From Glaucostegus cemiculus (lineage: Eukaryota): a DNA stretch of 64,000 bases. The notes beneath the pieces were generated by a model. The model was not told the DNA's origin and made no database searches. It saw only the letters and a program-made list of their open reading frames with translations. This document shows, in pieces, positions 9,379 to 55,689 of the stretch (the first letter of the stretch is position 1; each line of letters opens with the position of its first letter). The stretch spans positions 3,844,001 to 3,908,000 of the forward strand of contig CDPCPM010000176.1 in NCBI GenBank assembly GCA_976551045.1. Direction: 5' to 3'. The position numbers were made by a program, and so were the translations under genes.

Positions 9379-9723
<345 letters not shown>

Positions 9724-10190: not shown

Positions 10191-10352
<162 letters not shown>

Positions 10353-19844: not shown

Positions 19845-20126
<282 letters not shown>

Positions 20127-22223: not shown

Positions 22224-22395
<172 letters not shown>

Positions 22396-30270: not shown

Positions 30271-31641
30271 GGAATTCCTAACAGAAAACACAAGGAACGG
30301 GAGGAGGAGAACTTCGATTGGCTGTTGAGCCTGCTCTGCATTCAATAATTTCATAGCGGTCCAATCTTGACCTCAACACCCACGCTCTCTTGTATTTCAA
30401 ATACCTGTCGATCTGAGTCTTGTACATATTCAGCGGCTCCACCTGTACTGCGCTCTGGGGTTGGTCTTGAAGGAGAGACTAAGTGAATAAAAATGCTCCA
30501 GTCAGATCTGAGAACAGGTGTGTGAGTGGTTCTTTTACTCCATAACACCCATTATTCATTATCTAAAGTTTAGCTGCTACTCCCTTTCATAGAGCTGTGC
30601 AACCTTTTACAATCTGTTTTATTTTCTCCCCCCACCTTTATATTTGTTGAAGCCATCCTCTGTTAGTTACTAAAAACTTGCCATCCTCCTTTGGCCCACC
30701 AAAAATCAACACAATATCCTATGCTTCTTCTTTCAATTTAATACTCTATGACTATTACTAAGTTGACTATGGATGGCGTATCCTTCCCTGGAGTCTTCTA
30801 CACTTTACTGAGAAATATTAACATCTCTTAAACATCTGTTGATTAACTGTCCAGATCCTGGAGCTCCCTACCCTACACTCCTGTAAACACACCTCCACTA
30901 GAAAGATGGCAGAAGTTCAAGGACATGGCTCATCACCACTTGCACAAATGCAATTACGCATCAGCAATAGATGGTCTTGCCAATGATATTCACTTCCCTT
31001 AAGTGAATAAACCACTCACACCACTAAAGTTGATTTAACCTTTTCATTCCACAGGCTCCTGAAGTAGAGTAATAGATCCCATTTTTTGTGGGAATTTCCT
31101 GATACAACAGAGATGCATCAAATTAACTATTTATCCATCCTTATTATTAGGGACAGTCGTGCTTCAGTATCTCTTGACTGCTATCCCTTCTCAAATCATT
31201 TACCTTCCTATCATTTCACCATTGTACAAGTTGGGTGTCATCACAATATTTAATGAGCTAATTTGCCACATAATGATCTACATCTCAGAGTTACCTAATG
31301 ACCTCTATTGGTTTTGTTGCATCAATTAACACAACAATATAACCAGAGTGACATTTATGCTTGACAGTTAATGAACTCAGCAAACCATTAAGCATCTGTC
31401 TTGTACATATGACTTCACAAAACAAACCATGCAAGGTCACACTTGGCCTGTCTACTGACACCTACAGTCAAGGACAGCAGAAAACCAGAAATTTTATTTC
31501 TAATACATAGAAGCAAAGATTACCATTCACTTTATGACACAAGGAAACAACCTTCAACCAGCAGATTCACCAATTGGAGGTGCAAAGCTGCCTACTTCTA
31601 ATCAGGATAGGTATCTAACGCCTCATGAATAAACTTACATT

Positions 31642-31879
31642 TGTAGCGACTCACGATAGCGGGGTCTGAAACGCCGTCGGCCGTCGCGGGGAAACGCGCG
31701 AGTTCCCACGATAGTGCCGGAAGGCGGGACTTCCAGCGGGAGTATGACGTCACTTCCGCCGGCCATGTTTTTTTTGTAGTTCGGGATATGCGCAGCTTTT
31801 GGTGAGTTATTAAAAACGTACTCACTCGAGTCTCCGTGTCCTCGTGTTTTTTCTAAGTCGCACCCTGCTGGCTGCTACA
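31642..31879 (+). mobile_element. Solo LTR, 238 bp (Gypsy/ERV-like), CpG-rich and apparently young
   Basis: Ends TGTAGC...GCTACA (6-bp inverted termini, TG..CA); 4-bp TSD CATT at 31638-31641 and 31880-31883; ATTAAA at 31809-31814; abrupt CpG enrichment confined to these boundaries. Confidence 0.85.
31745..31758. promoter_or_regulatory. Overlapping ETS-CRE composite motif within the LTR
   Basis: TGACGTCACTTCCG = reverse complement CGGAAGTGACGTCA (full CRE palindrome overlapping an ETS core). Confidence 0.65.
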
Positions 31880-33259
31880 CATTCATGATATAGGGCCCAT
31901 TTCCTTTTTTTTTTAAAAGAAGAGAGGACATGGCACCTTAAGAAATTTCTTTGTATTTCGAGATCTTTACTATTAAAGACCAAACATTTTTTGCAGTTTC
32001 AACAGAAACTTAAGAACATGAAAACAAATGCAAATCAAAAAAAAGTGATCCTTTAAATATCAGAAAGAAACCAGCATGAAGTGAATAGTCATCAAGTAAC
32101 ATTAAGGTATCATTCTTCACAGCATTCCTTTCTACCACTATAGGTAGGGCAATTGATTGAAATGGATGGAATTAGAAATTGCAATCTCTCACGCAAGTAA
32201 AATTCAAGGATTGTAATCAATCACAAGAGAGTTTGACTTCGTAACAGCAATCCAGTGGCCTGGCTAATAATATTGAACTTTTCAAGAAAAGTCACCTGCA
32301 GATTTTCTAAATGAATTTCAGAAAGCTGAAGTAAAATAAATTCCTGCTCAAAGAATTAAAAGATTGAACTTCTACATCTCTCTGCACCCTCTGAATAATT
32401 TTACAGCCAAAAGGGATAATGTGACCAAGACCAGGCTCTCTATAACTGAATCTTCAAGTGGAATCCTTCAGCTGGAAAGAATCCCTAAATAAATGAGGGA
32501 ATTCATGACCCACAATTTGAGAGAAGAAAATCAATGGATTTATATTTCAGTCTTTCCTTCAGGCACATTTCCCAGCAAAATCATTTTCTGAATTTTATGA
32601 CCTCAAATGAATGCGAAGGAACTATTTGCCCAGATTAATGGAGAGGGTTATGTTTCCTTGAAATAAATTGCTGGCTAACAATGGAAGCTAAGTAGGAGAT
32701 AAAGTTACTTCATCAATTCTTTTCACGCGATAAACAAAATCTTCTGTATGCCTGTCTTTCCTGTAAAACCTATTATTCCTGCTCATGTTTTTAAGGCAAC
32801 ATTTAAAACTAACAAAATGTTAAGTATTCCGAATTGAAATAAAGGGCATTAAACTGTCTTTAACAATCTTGTTACAGAGTCTGGCCGACAGGTGGAGCAG
32901 GGAGATGATTTCCACAGTTTCTCTCCTAGCTCTGTTGCCATCTTGTCTGTTAAAAAAAAAATCAATTGACCATGAGTAACCCAAAGATCAATTTACAAGC
33001 CTCGTATTAGTTTGGCAGAAATATTGAGTCAGTGACTGGGAAGACAAGGATGATAAACTCTAAAGCAGACCCAACAATGTGTGAAGACGTACATTTTGGC
33101 AGGAGAATAAAAAGTAATCCATACTAAATGGTACCATTTTAAAAATGTTTCATGAATTAAGCTACTGGGGACATGTAATCTTGAAAAGTGGCACCATAAA
33201 CTGAGAGACTGTTTAGAAAAACATATTTTTGCTTTATTTGAATAGTGATAAAACACCAA

Positions 33260-33760: not shown

Positions 33761-35327
33761 ATAAAAAAGTAAATGGTTCTCCAACCTAAGGCTAATTAGC
33801 TCAACAGCAGCAATTCATTGCGAGTTTATGACCATCAAATGACAATATGACAGAGATCCATAATTTCTTCAAATACAAGGGAAGACGCTTGTTTGTTGAA
33901 TGGTATTGTTCAAGAACTATACATTCAACTACGGAAGATAAACAATTGGAAATATGCCAACAAGTTGGTCGGCTCAGGTAACCTTCAGCTCATTCAAACT
34001 TCCTCCACTGTTATGTACTGACCAAATAGGAAAATAATTTCCGATCCAAACGAAATGTTGCTGCAAAGAGCACAGATTTTCCTGTCGCTTCAGATTAGGC
34101 GTATTTCCTGCTGTGTAACTTTGCCCTCAGGGACTCCATTGTCAAACCAAGTCACTGTTAAAGAATCTGCCCCCATTTTTTGTCAAGAGGTGCCATAAAA
34201 CAATGAATTTTGCTCAAAGTTTGCATGCGGTCACTTCTGCAGTTACCTCAGTTATTTTACCAAGTAATTTTGCATATACTTTTCTAAAAAAAAGAATCCA
34301 CTTTTGTAATATTATTCACTGTTTTAAATTGATTAGTGTTCACAGCTCACTGCTGGGTACGAAAGATTGTCAGAATGACCTTATGATGTGACCAGGGAGG
34401 ATTTGGATAATGGCTTCTAGTGTCATGAAGCCGCGAAGGTCAGCAAAAATGCCAACTGATATAGCTTTGAGGGTGGTAGAGAGAAAGTGTTCCAATCCTC
34501 TGATAAAATCCCTGTGATAAGTGTTACAATTCACTTTACACAACTGTTCAGTAAATGTAACAGGCACTACAGAAACACTATTGTTATAAAAGAATGACCT
34601 GGATGATGCGCCCCATTTCCACTTGTCAGTGAATGCTCCCCATTCACCCACTCTTACGTTCTCTGATCCAGGCGACCCATTTCCCTGGCAAAGTGTCTAG
34701 TACCAACCAAGGACTTGTTGCTGCATAGGGCCTCCAGCAACATAATCGATTAATGTAGTGGACCACACCAAGCCCCAGCCATGAAAGCCTTGATGGGTCA
34801 AAGTTCTTCAAAGCTTCTTTTTAAAAATATAAAAGGAAAAGTTTCTGAATTTCTGAAAATTTCCCCACAGCCAAACAAATCCCATTCAAATGAGTGGGCT
34901 TGGAGATCAAGACAGTGAAAGCCCTCGGGAACCTCTGCAAGCTCCTCCTCTGCTGTAAGCCGGGTCCAGGAGCACACAATCGTTGGCAAACTGTCAGCTT
35001 GTCCATTAAATTCGGGAATTCCCCTTCCATGCAAGAAACATTACAAACCATCCCGGTACTTCTGCTGAAAAGTTTCCAGTAAAATCCAGAGCAATGCAAA
35101 ATATAACAAAATTAAAGATTTTGTTCCTGACATTTTACATTTGCTCCCACCAGAAATTCAAGTTCCCCACCTTTGGCCCAGACACAAATGAAAATGAAAA
35201 TAAGGTTTTCCAAAAGAGAAATGTCATATTATGCTTGTCATAAAGATTGCAACTCCAGTCTAGTTAGATTCCAGATTCACAATACATTCTCCTCAAAATG
35301 TTTATTTAAGGAAAAAAGCTCATGAGA

Positions 35328-35548
35328 AGCGCATTGGCACAGCTAGTAGAGCTGCTTCGTCACAGCTCCAGTGACCCCAGATTCAATCCTGACCTCCAGT
35401 GTTGCATGAGTAGAATTTGCACGTTTTCCCTGGGACCACGTGGGTTTCCTGCCACATCCCAAAATGGGCCTCTAGTGTTGATGGATGGTAGAATCACCCC
35501 TGGATGATCGGAGAGGACTCTGTGCTGTATCTCCTCTAGACTATGACT
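35328..35548 (+). mobile_element. HE1-like / V-SINE tRNA-derived SINE
   Basis: tggcacagctagtagagc (A box), agattcaatcc (B box), V-domain gtgggtttcct, CR1-like tail ctgtgctgtatctc..ctatgact. Confidence 0.7.
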
Positions 35549-38500
35549 AACACGTCCAAGAAACTATAAAGGATGGCAGACTTAACCAAAATTAACAGAG
35601 CATTGTTTGAAACATGAATTTTATTGCAAGAATTAGAGAGAAAAGGAGAAGAATTTCTCCCTATAGACTGTTTTTAAGATATGGAATGTACTATTTAAAG
35701 GGTAAGAAAATCAGTAACTTCCAAAAGATGCCTGGACACATAGAAAGGGCAGAATTCAACAGGGTTAGTGAAGAAAGGCCAGCATTGGACAACAGCTGGC
35801 ACATCTTTCAAAAGAACCACAAGTGATATGACGGGTTGAACAACTTCCATGTGCACTTTAAGATTGAGTGATTCGTGAATGAACTATTTTAGGCTTTGCA
35901 CAAAAAACAATGCAACCAATAAGATCAATGTTTTGTAATTAGCAAGTATTGCTCAAATAGCACAGCATGACAACAAGTTACTGCAATGCTCTGAAGTCAG
36001 AGTTGCATCTAAGGTGCCAAAATAGTCATGACAACAGGTAAGTGGCTGAAAGATGGAGAGCACTCTCCTCCATAACTGGGTTTGCCCTTAAGACGTGAAG
36101 TCACGTGTACCTCAGTGGCTGCAGATGAATTGGGACCAAACAACCCGGATAGAGAGCCCCACAGCCTTCAAACAGACAGGAATGCACTAATCAATATAAT
36201 TTGCCATTGACTTTCACTTTCCATAAAATTCCCGATATATCAAAAGCTGTACAGCATTCAAAGGAATTATAAAGTTGCACATTTCAATGATGGTATAGTC
36301 TAGCAGTTTATTCTGCAATCATCCTTCATAACAACAGAAATGCTTCATGTTCTGCAATGTTTTCAACTAGTCTTATTCAGCATTTTTCTGGGAAAAAAGT
36401 CTCAATATGCTTCAAGGGAATTGCGGTTACCAATCAGGAAGCGAAGATTAGGACCCAATGTACACCAAAACAACTGAGATGAAAGCAAGAAACTATTGAC
36501 CCAGATATTATGGTCTGCAGCAAAGAAACAACACCCAATATTCATTACAGCTCCCCCAGAATTTTTGCAGGTTTATGAATAGTGTCATGTCTTCTACTGC
36601 ACTTCCGAACCATGTACGAACATGTGCTGACTTTTCAAGCAATTAATTTGAAAAAAATGCTTGATGAACCACATATTTTAGAAAAGGAAGTGCAAATTAG
36701 ATTTAAATCGTGTAGAGAAAGCAAAATAAATACTGGGGAAGAATGATGAGATTGAGAAAAAGATGAGAAGTCAGAATAAAATTAAAATATTAAAATCATT
36801 TTAACACTTAAAATTTTTCAACATTAAAATGAGATTCCATACAAAATAGAGCTTACAAGACCCATGTAGCTGTTTAGCAATAATTATAATTGAGCACACT
36901 AATAAAAAAAATCACTTATAATTGAAGGCACTAACCATAACCTTCTGTCACAAGATAACTACTAATTTCATGCCGATTTACAATAAGCATGGTAGTGAAA
37001 TTGATGAGCAATAGTACAGCATAATTCATGAGAGAATTAATTATTATGGCAGCACCTTCCACATTTTCACACATAACCAACTAGCCAATGCTGTGGTCAG
37101 GCATCACTCTTTGTAAGTGTTTGCTTTGCTATTACTAATGGAAAATCTGGGCACTTCGTTTTGAAGCAAAGTCAAGGGTTTGGAAAATGGATGGCAAAGA
37201 TTGGCCTCCAACAGTGTAGGGACAATTAGTGACCTAAAGCTGGAAGGGCATAAGATGGAAGATCATAAATGGAAAGTCCAGAAATTGGAGCTCTGCTTCT
37301 ATCTAGCTTAAGCAGCAGGATAGGTATTCATTGTAAGCAAGGTAGTCAAGGGAGTTCAACGCACATAAATATTAGCGAGTATTAAAGCAGCTACATTCTA
37401 CTTCCTGTTGTATTGCCAATAGTAGTTGTTGACCCAAAAATTGATGTTGAATGACACCCAAATATAGTAATCATCTTGATGCAAGAAGTGAAGAAATGGG
37501 CCTCACTGATAGAGTGAAAAGAATAAGGCAAGGGTTGACACAAGAGGAAAAGCTATAGGGGGCAATTAACAAGAAGTGAAACCTCAAGAACACCGTAATA
37601 GAGGTAGATTAAGGAGAGGAGAATGGAATGGCTGATGGTATTGAAGGTAGACATGGATTTGGAAATAAGCAATGACAATGAGCCCTGATGTAAGTACTTA
37701 GGAGTGATTTGATCAAGTGGTCTCAGCGTTGTTGGTAGAGTGGAAAATGACTGGGAGGAACTCAACTAGGAAACGGTAAAGCTGATAAAATGGCAGATCA
37801 AGGAAGATGCAGGCAACCAGCCTTTTGGGTTACGGAAAATCACCCTTACAGAATTCAGAAATTAATACCCAAGAATGAGATATGGAATAAAATTCACTCA
37901 CATGGAATTTGTGGAATAAGAAGTGAATAAAATCAACAATTTTTTTTCAACTCTCATTTCTTAACACATGTGCAGATGGTGCAGCTTCCCTTTAGTGCAA
38001 ATTATGATATGGCTGGTTTTCTAGGAATGCAACCCCACTGTAAAATGTTTACTCAAACAAGTGGCCTCCTCAAGTCCAACTGTCTAAGGCAGCATTATTA
38101 AGCCCATTTTGTTGAGAATTATATTAACCAACAGGTATCCAGGTACAAGGATGGCACTTCCAGCTAGATATACAGTTGCCTATAAATAATATGGTTAAGC
38201 AGTGACCTCATTCTGCAAACATGCATTCAGTTAATTTTCTAATAATTCTCTAATATAACCATTGATTTCTGTCAGTAAACAAAATTCAGTAAATTAGGTT
38301 TATATTAGATAACCTTCCTCAGCCTTAGTGATCAAAGACAGCCTTGTTTCATTTGACAGCATACCTCTACCTGGCCAGTATCCAGATTACTGTAATAAAC
38401 CCAGGGAATCAAAGAGAAAATGTCGATTAACATGTTTTACTGGAATATTACATACTATTGTGGGGTCTACTTAACTTTTGTTCCACCATCCAAATTTTGG

Positions 38501-43959: not shown

Positions 43960-46900
43960 CAAGCAGCCCTGCATTAATTCAAAAGCTACAGTGAAAATTC
44001 ATTCTAAGTGAGTTTACTTTCACATCTGCCACTTCTGCATTGTAGACCACAAGAAAGCAGGTTTCACTTCCTTTGGTAAAGTTTGTTCTCTGATCAGCAA
44101 ATCCATTTTCCTCTCCACTCCTCTGATGCTTCTCTTTTTTAATCTAGCCTAACTAACGTTACCTCATTAGTCCCAAATTTGTACCTTTTTCGTATTTCTC
44201 ACTCATTTCCCCTCTTCCCTCCAAATCCATTTTGCCCAGGAGATTCAGTTCCTGCCTCCAGTTCCCAGAGTACTGAATCACCTTTCTTTCCTAGCCCTAC
44301 AGCAGCTGAAATCATTGACCATTGTCTCTCCTCAGGTACTGCAAACCCCGTTCCTCCATATCTACTATCATTACTCACCTCAAGAAAAAACCTTTGTTGC
44401 TTCCATCCAAAGTCCTTTAATCAGTTGCAGATCCCCTAAACTCAAGTCCATGTCACCCTAAACCCCTTACCCAAATCCCTATGGTTGGGTCGCCAAAATA
44501 GTACCAAAACAGTTTTAATTAAACTCACCAATGATATCCTTTGTGATTATAGCAAAAGCAATCTGTTCCTTTTTGCTCTTCTCAAGCCTTTGACATTGTC
44601 CCCAGTGTGTGGCTGAAGTCTGGAGAGTCGAGGGGAAGTGGGGAGAATAAAAATAGGATGAATAAAAATGGGATTAGTGAATGATCGGTGTAATGGGTGA
44701 TTAATATCTGGCACAGACTCAGTGGGCCAAGGGGCCTGTTTCTATGCTGTACAACTCTATGACTTTCCTCCTGTGCATCACAAATACCGTCCAGCTGGCC
44801 ATAGCTTCCATCACATTACGTCCCCACCATATTCACTCTGAGGCACAGTAGCATAGTGGTTAGCACCATCCTGCACAGCGCCAGCGACCCGGGTTCAAAT
44901 CCGGCCACTATCTGTAAGGAGTTTGTACGTTCCACCCGTGTCCATGTGGGTTTCCTCCGGGTGCTCCGGTTTCCTCCCACATTCCAAAGATGTACAGGTT
45001 AGGAAGTTATGGGCATGCTATGTTGGTGCTGGAAGTGTGGTGACACTTGCAGGCTGCCCCCACCCCCCAAAAATCACTAAGCAAAAGATGTGTTTCACTG
45101 TGTGTTTCGATGTACGTGACTAATAAAGAAATCTAATCAAACATCCATACATTGCTCACCCCCACAACCCCATTTCCCATCTACACGCTGCCTTTAGTTT
45201 ACAACTTCACATCATCTTTCCCTCAACTGTCATCCAGCAAATTTGCTTTGATAGGGTCAGAATATTTTAGTTTGTTTTGACTTGGCAGTGTTTTTATTTA
45301 TTAGTACTTAATTAAGTTGCTTTGCATTAATTCTAAATAATTCTGATTTTGTTATTAGAAAAAAACTTCAGGCAGTATATGCATCACCCAGTTTTTTTTC
45401 AGCTTCCAAGTGCATTAAATCCAAGGCATAGATTTAATTTAGTTAACTAAATATTAACAAAATTAAATAAAGGCATGGATTGTCACCTAGCAGAAATTTA
45501 ACAAAGCAGTTGACAACTTTCGTTAGAAAACCAAGAGAATCACTTTTCACACTAAACCCATTTTCTTGGGAGGTTGCTTCAACTTTCTGTGCATCAGTTC
45601 TGCAAGTTACACAGTAAAACCATTTCATGATTTGAAATGTAACTTTTCAGATTTTGGAGAAATATATTTGTGGAATCCTTGCTGCTTGTTAGACAGATAA
45701 ACATTGACCCTATGTCATCTTTTAAGGCAGTGGTAGATCTTGTCCTTCATGCTACTATCTTACTCAAACACATACAGAACTTGAAGCAAGCCATATATGC
45801 AACCTCCCAAGAAATGGGTTCAGTATCAAGCAACAAGGTTGTCAGCTACTTTGTTAAATTTCAGCTAGGTGACACACCCTGAATAAATCTGCACTCTTTA
45901 ATGTAATCACATACATGAGGTTTTGCACCTCATTCCACCTGCACTTTCACTCCTGTTCCTTTTTCCACTACCATCAGACCATTGACTAGCATATCGCACA
46001 GACAAACATAACTGTTAGTCAACTATGAGCACACTTTAAAAGGCACATGCAGCACACTGAAAGCAAAATGTAGAAATTTATCCAGCTGCTATTTATTGTT
46101 AACATGGATATTCAACATTGAAAAATTGCAAGATTTTTCCAAAGTAGGCTTTCAGAAAAAGAATCAATTAACATTGAAAAATTCAAGTCCCAAATTCTGG
46201 GAAGACTGAGGCCAACATCTCTGGTCCACATAATGAACTCTGTTCCTCCACCACAGACTTTAATTCCTCTCCCAGACAGCTGTCTGAATTAATCCATACC
46301 AGTTGCAACCTCAGTGCCATATCTGATCCAGACTGGTTTTGGACTTCACATCCATGAAGCCTTTGATCACCTACTTCTACCTCTGTACCATCATTTGACT
46401 TTGCTTCTGCTCATCTCCTCCACAACCTTCAAACACTTGCGCTGCATGTACATTTGACTATTTAAACAGTTCCTAGTTGGCCTCCTTTATTCCACTCTCT
46501 AGAGACAGCAGAGTTTTGGATGACTGTATATATTCCATGAGCAACAAGCTCTCTTTACCCATCAACCTCTATACTCGTTGACCTTCACTGCCTTCTGGTA
46601 AAGCACCATCTAAATTTCAAAACCCACATTATTTTTTCCAAATCCCTCTCAATTCTATTTAAGTCCTATTGTCTTTTTTGACATACTGTTCACAAATTCT
46701 AGTCTCTCCTGAAAATTTTAGTCACTCCACTATTCAGCAGTCACAGTGCCCAAACTCTGGAACTACCATGCCAGAGTAACTCTGCTTCTCTACCCTCTTT
46801 CCTCCTTTAAGGTGCTCAAACCACCTTCTAGACCAAGCCTTTAAGGCCAGCTGTCACTACATTTCTCAATAATAACAGGCATTGTGCTTTGTTTGATTTG

Positions 46901-52061: not shown

Positions 52062-52700
52062 AAATTATTTTCTTACTTCCCTATTTCAGGTAAGCCACCC
52101 AATTCTAACTAGCAAATCCTACTCTAAACATAATGTTTGAACTGAGGATAAAATAGTATTTCAAACAGGTTTACCATTCATTATCTTAGCCGTCTACCAA
52201 AGTCTGTCACCTTACATCTGCATTAATTTCACCCTTTTAGCAATCCACTTCATCAACTCATGTCAAGATGTATCCTGTGTCCCAAGGTTATACAAATACA
52301 TGATGTAGTCATGTTTATAGAACCACTCAATTTTTTTAAGCAAATATCAAACTGCATCGAGGTTGAGAAGGAACAGTTATGCTTAACTATTTTTTTTAGA
52401 TTTTTTATTTACAGTGTGGTAACAGGCCCTTTTGGCCCAATGAGTCCACGCCGCCCATTTTAAACCCCCAAATTAACCTACCTGTACGTCTTTTTGCAAT
52501 GTGGGAGGAAACCGGAGCACCCGGAGGAAACCCACGCAGACACGGGAGAACGTACAAACTCCTTACAGTCAGCGACGGGAATCAAACCCCAATCGCTGGC
52601 GCTGTAACAGCGTCGTGCTGACCGCTACGCTATTGTGCCGCCCCAAATTAAAATCATTTTCTTACTTCCCTATTTCAGGTAAGCCACCCAATTCTAACTA
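52062..52700 (+). repeat. 50-bp direct repeat pair (52062-52111 and 52651-52700)
   Basis: aaatYattttcttacttccctatttcaggtaagccacccaattctaacta, 49/50 identical. Confidence 0.9.
52392..52644 (-). mobile_element. Young V-SINE with CR1-derived tail
   Basis: Minus strand GGGGCGGCACAATAGCGTAGCGG (A box), GGTTTGATTCCC (B box), V-domain, tail gggccaaaagggcctgttacc; many CpGs retained. Confidence 0.9.
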
Positions 52701-53582
52701 ACTTCAAGCTCCAGAAAAAGCAACTTAAAGATTAGGTGACTAATTACAGAAATAGAAATTCCCACAAATGTAGAACATTCTCTAGAGCAAACTACTGCTG
52801 AACTCAATTACAAACAAAACTCCAGCAATTAAATAAACTTCAGGAATCCACACTTAGATTCCTGTTCTCACCCCTACAAGTTTCAAACCTTCGGAGCCTT
52901 CATAAAATTCACTTATTTGACAGAGCTGTTAATCACCTAACAAAATGCCTCCATCTTCCTCATTCATCTGTGAAGCACCTTTGGATTTTTCTGCTTTCAA
53001 AGCATGATATAAATGCAAATTGCCACTTGTACACAACCATGAAGTGTTTAGATCAAGAGGAATTGCTTCCAACAGTAAAAAGGGCAATAAAAATCACTTA
53101 AGGACCCAGAGATGACATCAGGAAGAAGTACTGAATGGTAAGGATTTGGAATACAGTATCTGATAGGATAGTAATAGTTCCAGTAGTTTTGAAAAGAAAA
53201 TTGAGTAAATTTGGATAAACTAGAGAGAAAGTTACAACGATATGGGGGGAGAAAAGCAGGGAGTGGAACTAACTGGACTACCTTTTACAAAAGGTGACAC
53301 AGTAATATTACTTGGACGTTTACCCCATAGTAACACTTAGCCAGTTAAGTTAATGCAACACAGAACAGTTTGAGTTAGTGGTCAAATATGTATTGTATGA
53401 CGCTGTAAAATGTTCTTAGAAATAGTGAAGTAGAAAATGTGGGTTATGTATCAGATTAGCTTTTGAATATGTATTGAATTTCCTATTAATTGGAATACCT
53501 TCAAGATTTAATTGGCCAGACCTTAATGATAGGCCAAATTGCCTCCCCGTGTTTAATTCACTGATTTTAATCCAAAAAAAAT

Positions 53583-53880
53583 CAACTGCTGGAAGAACTC
53601 AGTGGGTAAGCAGCATCTGTGGAGGCAGAGAGATGGCCACTCTTTCGTGTCAAGACGCAAGAATGTAGAGGTAGGATAGCCAGTATATGGAAATGAGAGG
53701 GAGATGCAAGACCGAGACTGGTAGGTAATAAGTAGAACCAGCTTGGGTGCAGAGGGGTGAAGATGGTCCAGTGGAGCCAAGTGAGGGAGGGTGAGGGGGT
53801 AGTGTTGTGATACAGGACGGAGGTTGGTAGGTGATAGGTGGAAACAGATAATGGGCTGGGGGGGGTGGTGGGTAGAGTCA
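53583..53880 (-). mobile_element. Penelope-like fragment, hammerhead core lost
   Basis: tgctggaagaactcagtgggtaagcagcatctgtggagg matches 39361 onward; G-rich body. Confidence 0.7.
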
Positions 53881-55689
53881 GATGTTAATCCCAGTTCAAA
53901 GTAGAGTTTTGTGATAGAACTGTTAGAGCATAATCTTATACAAAGTATATCAGCACTAGAGCAGGAATAACTTGTGGTTGTTTGAGCCCCAAAGACAATC
54001 AATGTAGGTCATTTGTAACTTACAGACCTTTTAAAGAATAAACCTGTAAATCTGTGAGGAATCGATTCCCAGCAGTAAGAAAACAGATAAAAGGCAAGGA
54101 CAACTGCTCATGTTACAAGACATTCCCCATGTAGAACAGAGTGGTCCACACAACCTTTGTTCCCGTGGGCAATAATTGCATGACAGAATTTATTAAGTAC
54201 TTTACTGGCTTGGATATTTGACATTGTCAATAACAGGCCATTAAATGTCCAACAGAAGAAAACACTAGATCAACATTTCCACACACAGGGAATGACATTT
54301 GCTACACTATTGTTGAATTGGAACATTGTAATCATAAACTTGGTAGTGTTGAGCTTGCCATTGTGTACTTCAGATATGGCCAATTAAATCTTGAAGGTAT
54401 TCCATTTAATAGGAAATTCAATACATATGAAAAAGCTGGTCTGAAACATAACCCACCCATTCTATTCCACTATTTCTAAGAACATTTTACAGCTTTATAC
54501 AATACATATTTGACCTCCAATTAACTCAAACTGCACGGCATTGCACTAAGTTAACTGTCTAAGAGTGCTGTCTTACTATGGGGTTAAATGTCCAAGTAAC
54601 ATAAGACTTATGGATTACGTCAATAAAAAGAAGTCCCTCAGATCAATACACATGGAAAAGGGCTGTAAATTTCAGAGATCAGGCTCGTCATACTAACCCC
54701 GCTTGAACACCAAATCCTACTCACACCAGTACTGCCACGCCACATAAATCAGCTAAAAGGAGCCTTCTTAGTTGGCCACATTTTAGAATGAGTAATTGCA
54801 GAATTCCACTACTGGAAGCTGCTTAAAACAAAACCAATCCACAATTCCAGAATTTGGAGAAACAAATCTTTTCATGTTGCCCTTCAACTTCTAAAGCCTT
54901 GGCTTTGCAAATCTTCCAGCACTGTCCAGTGATAACTCAGAACCACAATGCATTTATTATACAAAGAAAAAGTAGCTTTTTAAAATTGATTTTGCTTGCA
55001 AAAATGAGCTATACTTTTTCAACAAACACTATTGCTGGAAAGAATACTTGGAACTGGTAAAATCATAATCTTTTTTTCATAGGCAGTTACACAATGCTGG
55101 TTCTGAAAAAAAATGAACTGCCCAGAAAACAAAGCAAAGCCGTGGGGTAATTATGTCAGGTCACTTAATCAGCATTAGATCACAATTTTAAAAATGTGCT
55201 GAGGAGTCAGAGAGGGGGACAAGGCAGCAATTTATCCAGTATTTAAAAAAAGATTTAAGCATTATTCAACTGGTTTGTAAATAACAACAAAAAATTGGTT
55301 GAATATGAGATAGGCAAAGCTTCAATTTTAATGAATTTCTTACATAACAAAAATGTGGTATTTCAAGAAGTTAAAAAAAATGCTGTATTTTCTCCAAGAC
55401 ATAAAATGAAATTATACACAATCCCACATGCATTTATAAAACAGAATACTAAGTTTTCTTGGCAAAGCACAAGAATTTTTAAACAATATCAGACACTAGA
55501 TGCTGAGTAATTAGAAAATAGCTGATGAAGCATTTAACTTTGGACATCTCTGCATGTTTATCACCTGTGACAGAAATATTCCAAACTCTGGGTGAGGAAT
55601 GCAAGATATGACAATAAACTTACATGCCCTTCATAATGAATACATGTTACATGCAATTTATGTATAATTTATGTTAATTTAAGTTTATG

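Follow-up and report, generated by a model that had tools for sequence, protein, structure and literature searches.

The elements closest to the one analyzed here belong to the CsRn1 clade of Ty3/Gypsy retrotransposons (CsRn1, PwRn1, AgCR and, in fish, CsRN1), which is defined with its CHCC Gag motif, its RT/RNase H/integrase phylogeny and the lack of env. CsRn1-like elements are described with 4-bp duplications, a trait not specific to the clade, with TGT..ACA ends and with a tRNA-Trp primer site after the LTR; the LTRs of PwRn1 and AgCR end in AAA or ATA (PMC2582038). Pufferfish CsRN1 and Mag LTRs measure about 200-300 bp, with 174 and 302 bp given for CsRN1 (PMC11117352). Human intronic solo LTRs are biased to the antisense orientation, and a solo LTR lying within a gene against its transcription is a commonly tolerated state (PMC1794541). 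LTRs can also respond to signals: LTR10A is bound by AP-1 in human trophoblast, and its cases at NOS3, CSF1R and ENG combine AP-1 sites with ChIP, transcript and deletion evidence (PMC10113160). Finally, an ETS-CRE composite motif, associated with GABP-alpha and CREB1, characterizes conserved gene promoters in a CpG-dense, TATA-less context (PMC3464117, PMC4555227).

Here we describe a 238-bp LTR located in a window of 64 kb (the whole stretch of DNA that was analyzed), upstream of exon 2 of mapk8. The element is a real, young and lineage-limited solo LTR, and we are reasonably confident in reading it as one insertion of a multi-copy retrotransposon, likely CsRn1-like Ty3/Gypsy, which is likely antisense to mapk8 and is probably a neutral, methylated passenger. 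The element and the exons of the host gene that are needed to follow the argument are the following.

31642-31879, plus strand (likely sense; antisense to mapk8): LTR element of 238 bp, TGTAGC..GCTACA; from the sequence and the borders in the runs.
31638-31641, no strand: left CATT, one copy of the 4-bp target-site duplication; from the sequence.
31880-31883, no strand: right CATT, the other copy of the duplication; from the sequence.
22225-22395, minus strand: mapk8 exon 2, the first coding exon, with the acceptor at 22395 and the main ATG at 22346; from the sequence.
19893-20022, minus strand: mapk8 exon 3, ending AAT|GTAAGT; from the sequence.

The outermost letters of the element, TGTAGC and GCTACA, form 6-bp inverted ends. 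A preliminary description of this DNA had reported a CpG-rich patch coinciding with a 238-bp TG..CA element and its CATT duplication, and this was borne out: the 26 CpGs of the element span from 31647 to 31859, every one within its borders, and the 500-bp flanks hold only 2 and 3. With a GC content of 0.55 and a CpG o/e of 1.43, against 0.24 for the window, the element is the top CpG patch of the 64 kb. The combination of TG..CA, a 6-bp inverted end and a 4-bp duplication, at lengths of 156-700 bp, is found at nine other places of the window, and for this reason the TG..CA/duplication pattern alone was rejected as proof of an LTR; when the spacing is fixed as in the element, one of 2,097 box pairs fits the pattern (the element's own box is among them, and the position of the match is not given). 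Within the 64-kb window no second copy of the LTR was found, neither a partner LTR nor an internal region was found nearby, and Rfam gave no matches.

What the element is can be seen in public sequencing data. Twelve public DNA runs from five studies, representing four coded organisms, contain shares of 0.05-0.09 of the interval 30900-32700, and four of the 12, one per organism, were aligned at 80% likeness: X1 (organism A), X2 (organism B), X6 (organism C) and X10 (organism D). X1 and X6 each contain one contig that covers 31082-31589 and 31879-32721, joined across the element, with flanks 93-94% identical to the window. The join skips 289 bases (from 31589 to 31879) and places 61 other letters between them, i.e. 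a net 228 bases are missing against the 242 expected for the LTR plus one duplication; the remaining 14 fall in a diverged stretch whose letters were not printed. Organisms A and C therefore provide the empty-site orthologues that the preliminary description had proposed to look for. X10 aligns over 30922-31641 at 94%; its match breaks off where the target site lies, 14 letters short of the contig end, and no join is seen. Copies of the LTR family were not found in X1, X6 and X10 (depth 0 over 31642-31821 at 80% likeness), where coverage holes are no proof of absence (X10 has no coverage at 31642-32121, and the flanks in X2 are almost bare). Several short low-likeness records at 30926-31011 in X1, X6 and X10 represent an old dispersed repeat fragment.

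In organism B, 2,579 contig records of X2 fall on the stretch and are piled up on the element; 471 of them have a likeness of 99% or more (short pieces), 773 lie at 95-99%, 1,066 at 90-95% and 269 below 90%. Summed depth, which is not a copy number, reaches 18,000-40,000 in the four LTR bins versus 0-18 in the other 26 bins, and peaks across 31702-31821. The share of X2 would be explained by about 15 of about 22 sampled words expected in the LTR. Loose ends of 16 and 29 contigs lie before 31641/31642, with an agreement of 0.42, and those of 18 contigs lie behind 31879, with an agreement of 0.46. Because these many-contig loose ends fall at the borders of the element, they confirm them independently, and such low flank agreement at fixed borders indicates many different insertion sites of one family. 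The identity as a solo LTR, proposed earlier from the letters of the window, thus stands: the site is empty in organisms A and C, and organism B has many copies of the family, all cut at the exact borders. Organism B is either the species of the window, thinly covered, or one further away.

Since the site is empty in organisms A and C, the family was not found in A, C and D, and it is multi-copy in B, the element is young and lineage-limited; its insertion postdates the split from relatives differing by about 6%. It is not retained across these relatives, a result compatible with a recent lineage-specific role. At 80% likeness the family has no record in the three organisms with flanks about 94% identical, whereas the likeness of its pieces in organism B extends from 99% or more to below 90%. 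This suggests that one lineage was invaded recently, via horizontal transfer or fast LTR turnover.

The family pieces also carry a distinctive substitution pattern. All 25 variable places among them are transitions, versus 55 of 87 in the X1 flanks (Fisher p about 9e-5), a pattern compatible either with CpG decay or with errors of reverse transcription. Of the 25, 18 are C>T or G>A; against the base content of the element this is not significant (p 0.11; the changed positions are not shown), and the excess alone was rejected as a sign of methylation. The CpG richness of the element would be due to its recent insertion, as its youth suggests, with a copy too young for decay; the alternative of an ancestral CpG island of mapk8 was rejected because the locus is empty in relatives. 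In the elephant shark, TEs are hypermethylated, a statement that names LINEs and SINEs but no LTRs (PMC5437953); by analogy, the LTR may be silenced by methylation.

The interior of the element carries promoter-like motifs and processing signals, all of them read from the sequence or from motif scans.

31717-31729, plus strand: ETS site CCGGAAG (31717) overlapping an E2F-like GGCGGGA (31723), in the putative U3; motif scan.
31745-31759, minus strand: ETS-CRE 15-mer GCGGAAGTGACGTCA, identical to the motif of PMC3464117; motif scan.
31762-31769, plus strand: YY1-like GCCATGTT; motif scan.
31775-31782, read 31782-31775 on the minus strand: GAACTACA, a putative site of the [G/A]ACTACA type; motif scan.
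31799-31807, plus strand: splice-donor-like TTG|GTGAGT, directly upstream of the poly(A) signal; sequence.
31809-31814, plus strand: ATTAAA poly(A) signal; sequence.
31836-31853, plus strand: GT/T-rich tract 3' of the poly(A) signal, putative U5; sequence, with the layout as in PMC3601003.

Read on the plus strand, the order is promoter motifs (31717-31782), donor (31799-31807), ATTAAA (31809) and GT/T-rich tract (31836-53), the same layout that has been described for animal Metaviridae LTRs (PMC3601003); A[AT]TAAA is missing from the minus strand of the element. The majority line of X2 behind 31879, a mixture of 18 contigs, continues with two spacer bases and then eight letters that match the start of a tRNA-Trp primer site. 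The poly(A) signal, the GT-rich tract and this partly seen tRNA-Trp-like primer site make it likely that the sense of the LTR is the plus strand, antisense to mapk8. The strong donor-like site that adjoins the poly(A) signal may spare the 5' LTR from terminating; in viruses, U1 binding close to a poly(A) site can suppress that site (PMC5071671).

The eight letters behind the element match the start of the primer site printed for CsRn1-like elements, whose 4-bp duplications and TGT..ACA ends are also found here (PMC2582038). By its sequence the element is thus likely to be CsRn1-like Ty3/Gypsy, our best guess of the family. At 238 bp it compares with the 174 and 302 bp of the pufferfish LTRs, and it differs in its ACA end from PwRn1 and AgCR; the clade is defined with coding domains, whereas the element is known here from its LTR. 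An endogenous retrovirus is a possible alternative identity. Some retroviruses, too, use tRNA-Trp as primer. An internal coding region of the retrotransposon was not found in the window, nor by pattern scans in viral contigs and metagenomes: the LTR pattern scan gave no matches in viral contigs, and one of the patterns gave none in metagenomes. With the other pattern, 14 metagenome loci showed 19-22-bp matches without further LTR likeness and were rejected as chance; the flanks of the six of these 14 that were printed contain no primer-site-like sequence. No title on the LTR family seen here was met among the accessible literature on shark Gypsy solo LTRs and promoters, a search that covered mostly papers outside subscription.

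The motifs themselves had been listed in the preliminary description (a CRE/ETS composite, a second CCGGAAG, GGCGGGA, a YY1-like site and a minus-strand GAACTACA), and all of them are present at the positions given there. The factor names attached to the ETS, E2F-like, YY1-like and GAACTACA sites follow general usage or that description. The full CRE, TGACGTCA, at 31745 occurs once in the 64 kb. Expectations were derived from 20,000 dinucleotide shuffles of the element, for motifs that had been picked after being seen: the 11-mer core of the ETS-CRE motif appears in 6 shuffles, the CRE in 74, the YY1-like site in 234, the E2F-like site in 780, the [G/A]ACTACA site in 871 and two CGGAA[G/A] sites in 1,325. 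The motif set of the element is real and exceeds its composition. An AP-1 heptamer, TGA[CG]TCA, is absent from the element.

The identity of the 15-mer GCGGAAGTGACGTCA, set in CpG-dense, TATA-less DNA, is what the element has in common with ETS-CRE composite promoters, but those are conserved gene promoters and the LTR is a young multi-copy element known from sequence alone (PMC3464117, PMC4555227). Housekeeping promoters are reported to be enriched in the overlapping ETS-CRE motif, which is described as a target of GABP-alpha and CREB whose binding CpG methylation blocks. Our element contains the 13-mer GCGGAAGTGACGT; in mouse, none of its 21 copies was methylated in either of two cell types. 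A non-overlapping ETS/CRE module, on which ATF and Jun act, is cited in the same paper (PMC3464117). By extension, the 13-mer might keep the LTR site open.

In an alternative reading, the LTR would be active in its native plus direction or as an enhancer, yielding a short antisense RNA that ends past the ATTAAA at 31809 or an RNA spliced from the donor at 31801/31802, or modulating the true mapk8 promoter from a distance. We consider this improbable, even though the plus-strand layout is complete and signal-responsive LTRs such as the AP-1-bound LTR10A of human trophoblast are known (PMC10113160), because in a cartilaginous fish methylation of TEs is the rule (PMC5437953). LTR10A resembles our element in that both are LTRs with bZIP sites close to a gene; it differs in having AP-1 sites and ChIP, transcript and deletion evidence, where the present element has a CRE, is likely antisense and is read from its letters (PMC10113160).

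The remaining readings concern the relation between the LTR and its host gene. Judged by a minus-strand exon, which scores 123.7 bits for MAPK8, 109.5 for MAPK10 and 100.4 for MAPK9, the host gene is mapk8 (JNK1). CpG-island-like patches upstream of exon 2 are limited to the LTR and two copies of a SINE-like repeat (44741-45010 and 52401-52710), and because of this the true first exon of mapk8 is probably beyond the window, with the LTR in intron 1. The first intron of human MAPK8 is long.

Several further features of the window are recorded here. In exon 2 (22376-22346, minus strand) an ATG-TGA start-stop is present at 22376; at 22370, an ATG in frame would put eight residues ahead of the usual start. 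Two exon-like copies at 9529-9568 and 10302-10341, 88% alike and 773 bp apart, are likely the mutually exclusive alpha/beta exons of JNK1. The SINE-like repeat is of the tRNA type, with a further copy at 35300-35600, and we take it to resemble the HE1 (V-SINE) family of sharks and rays. Its copies make up two of the window's three CpG-island-like patches besides the LTR, and the fourth patch overall, at 1451-1710, lies near LINE-like remnants. The genome is that of a vertebrate poor in CpG, and the look of the SINE and LINE of the window makes a shark or ray the probable host. Around the SINE copy near 52400-52650, a 50-nt direct repeat (52062-52111 and 52651-52700, 98% identical, 589 bp apart) would be either a local duplication or a target duplication of unusual length. 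At 53333-54566, long inverted arms (53375-53526 and 54369-54520, 88%), extended by 53333-53377 and 54522-54566, enclose about 840 bp and form a possible non-autonomous DNA transposon.

The preliminary description had also drawn attention to a splice donor at the left edge of the LTR which points towards exon 2, and had noted that it reproduces the junction used by exon 3. The two donors that matter here are the following.

31633-31641, read 31641-31633 on the minus strand: donor-like AAT|GTAAGT, made of host flank and target site; sequence.
31649-31657, minus strand: competing donor-like ATC|GTGAGT within the LTR, 16 nt ahead of the flank donor; sequence.

The identity with exon 3 is exact (AATGTAAGT), and the exon-2 acceptor, expected about 9.2 kb downstream, is indeed at 22395, 9,243 bp away. 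A further minus-strand GTGAGT donor lies inside the LTR at 31828-31820. However close to the element, the flank donor was not created by it, because its nine bases consist of target site and host flank; when the LTR and one duplication are removed in silico the same 9-mer is still there, and the LTR as creator of the donor was rejected. Such sites are not rare: in the 41.6 kb upstream of exon 2, GTAAGT occurs 16 times, and 42 sites agree with the consensus at 7 or more of its 9 positions. Within 10 nt downstream of a random position, a GTAAGT is met in 0.4% of cases and an equal-or-better consensus site in 1.0%; within 250 nt these values rise to 9% and 23%. From these frequencies, the adjacency of donor and LTR would be a modest coincidence at one locus, of a kind to be expected somewhere in a many-copy family. 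The host bases adjoining the donor have no aligned counterpart in organisms A and C, and so give no sign of constraint; a conserved cassette exon ending at the donor is unsupported, 31911-31976 being densely different in organism A (12 listed differences).

Promoters rich in CpG fire bidirectionally. Were the LTR open in some tissue (germline, early embryo or under stress), its minus-strand RNA could immediately meet the U1 site, be spared early termination and be spliced to exon 2, producing a minor, lineage-specific 5' isoform of mapk8. If the outer donor served, its AAT and the first G of exon 2 would together make an ATG, from which an 8-codon ORF would run to a stop ahead of the main start; this upstream ORF would damp translation. 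The path would be passable: both donors (31657-31649 in the LTR and 31641-31633 in the flank) precede the first minus-strand AATAAA, at 31498, no minus-strand ATG lies between the CRE and the donor (a single one is at 31766), the exact ETS-CRE 15-mer is of a kind enriched in housekeeping promoters (PMC3464117), and U1 sites protect promoter-proximal transcripts (PMC5071671). Against it, the polarity of the LTR is likely opposite to mapk8, the donor is older than the insertion and one of 16 or 42 similar sites, the host bases beside it are not matched in organisms A and C, and the insertion is missing in relatives, so that it is dispensable for mapk8 there; such an isoform is in our judgement quite improbable. 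We give equally little credit to the broader proposal that the LTR family is a portable, housekeeping-type CpG promoter with the exact GABP/CREB ETS-CRE 15-mer, YY1-like and ACTACA sites, unmethylated and recently multiplied in a single lineage whose relatives are without it, and whose divergent transcript at this locus is caught by the host U1 site and joined to mapk8 exon 2 as a uORF-bearing JNK1 isoform.

An exapted mapk8 promoter with feedback, as the preliminary description had envisaged, is unlikely from the sequence. CRE sites are able to bind ATF2/c-Jun, and the element has a full TGACGTCA, unique in the window. Nevertheless, a loop from JNK to JNK1 through ATF2/c-Jun is very remote, because it requires the spliced minus-strand transcript to be real and JNK-dependent binding in addition, the literature assigns the overlapping ETS-CRE motif to GABP-alpha and CREB (PMC3464117), the element lacks an AP-1 heptamer, and the motif is likely family-wide, hence not tuned to mapk8 (X2 depth is highest at 31702-31821, where single letters are not listed). 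A TE-derived MAPK8 promoter is not described in the accessible parts of the literature searched, under the same limits of coverage as above.

The reading of the element as a young and probably neutral solo LTR accounts for the locus as follows. The integrase would have inserted a full element at CATT, where the duplication is observed, and recombination between the two LTRs would have left one. Together, the ETS, CRE, YY1-like and ACTACA sites would serve the element as its native promoter, TATA-less and of housekeeping type, leading on the plus strand from the U3 motifs to a start site, the donor, the ATTAAA and the GT-rich U5, an arrangement observed as a layout and proposed as a function. 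In the antisense placement the poly(A) signal would spare mapk8 transcripts, and the insertion would be tolerated, in line with the bias of human intronic solo LTRs, which was established for human ERVs and not for the family seen here (PMC1794541). The flank donor would be an unrelated cryptic host site.

Signal-responsive LTRs being already known, a positive result for such a role here would add one more example to them. Were the minus-strand junction true, the locus would be a dated natural experiment in which a conserved kinase acquires a new first exon from an LTR that is not retroviral, and other copies of the family might have founded numerous promoters of this sort within the lineage. 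As a neutral insertion, it offers a clean case of a young, lineage-limited LTR with known empty-site relatives, useful but ordinary, and it shows that the motifs of a textbook housekeeping promoter can occur as a set inside the LTR of a retrotransposon.
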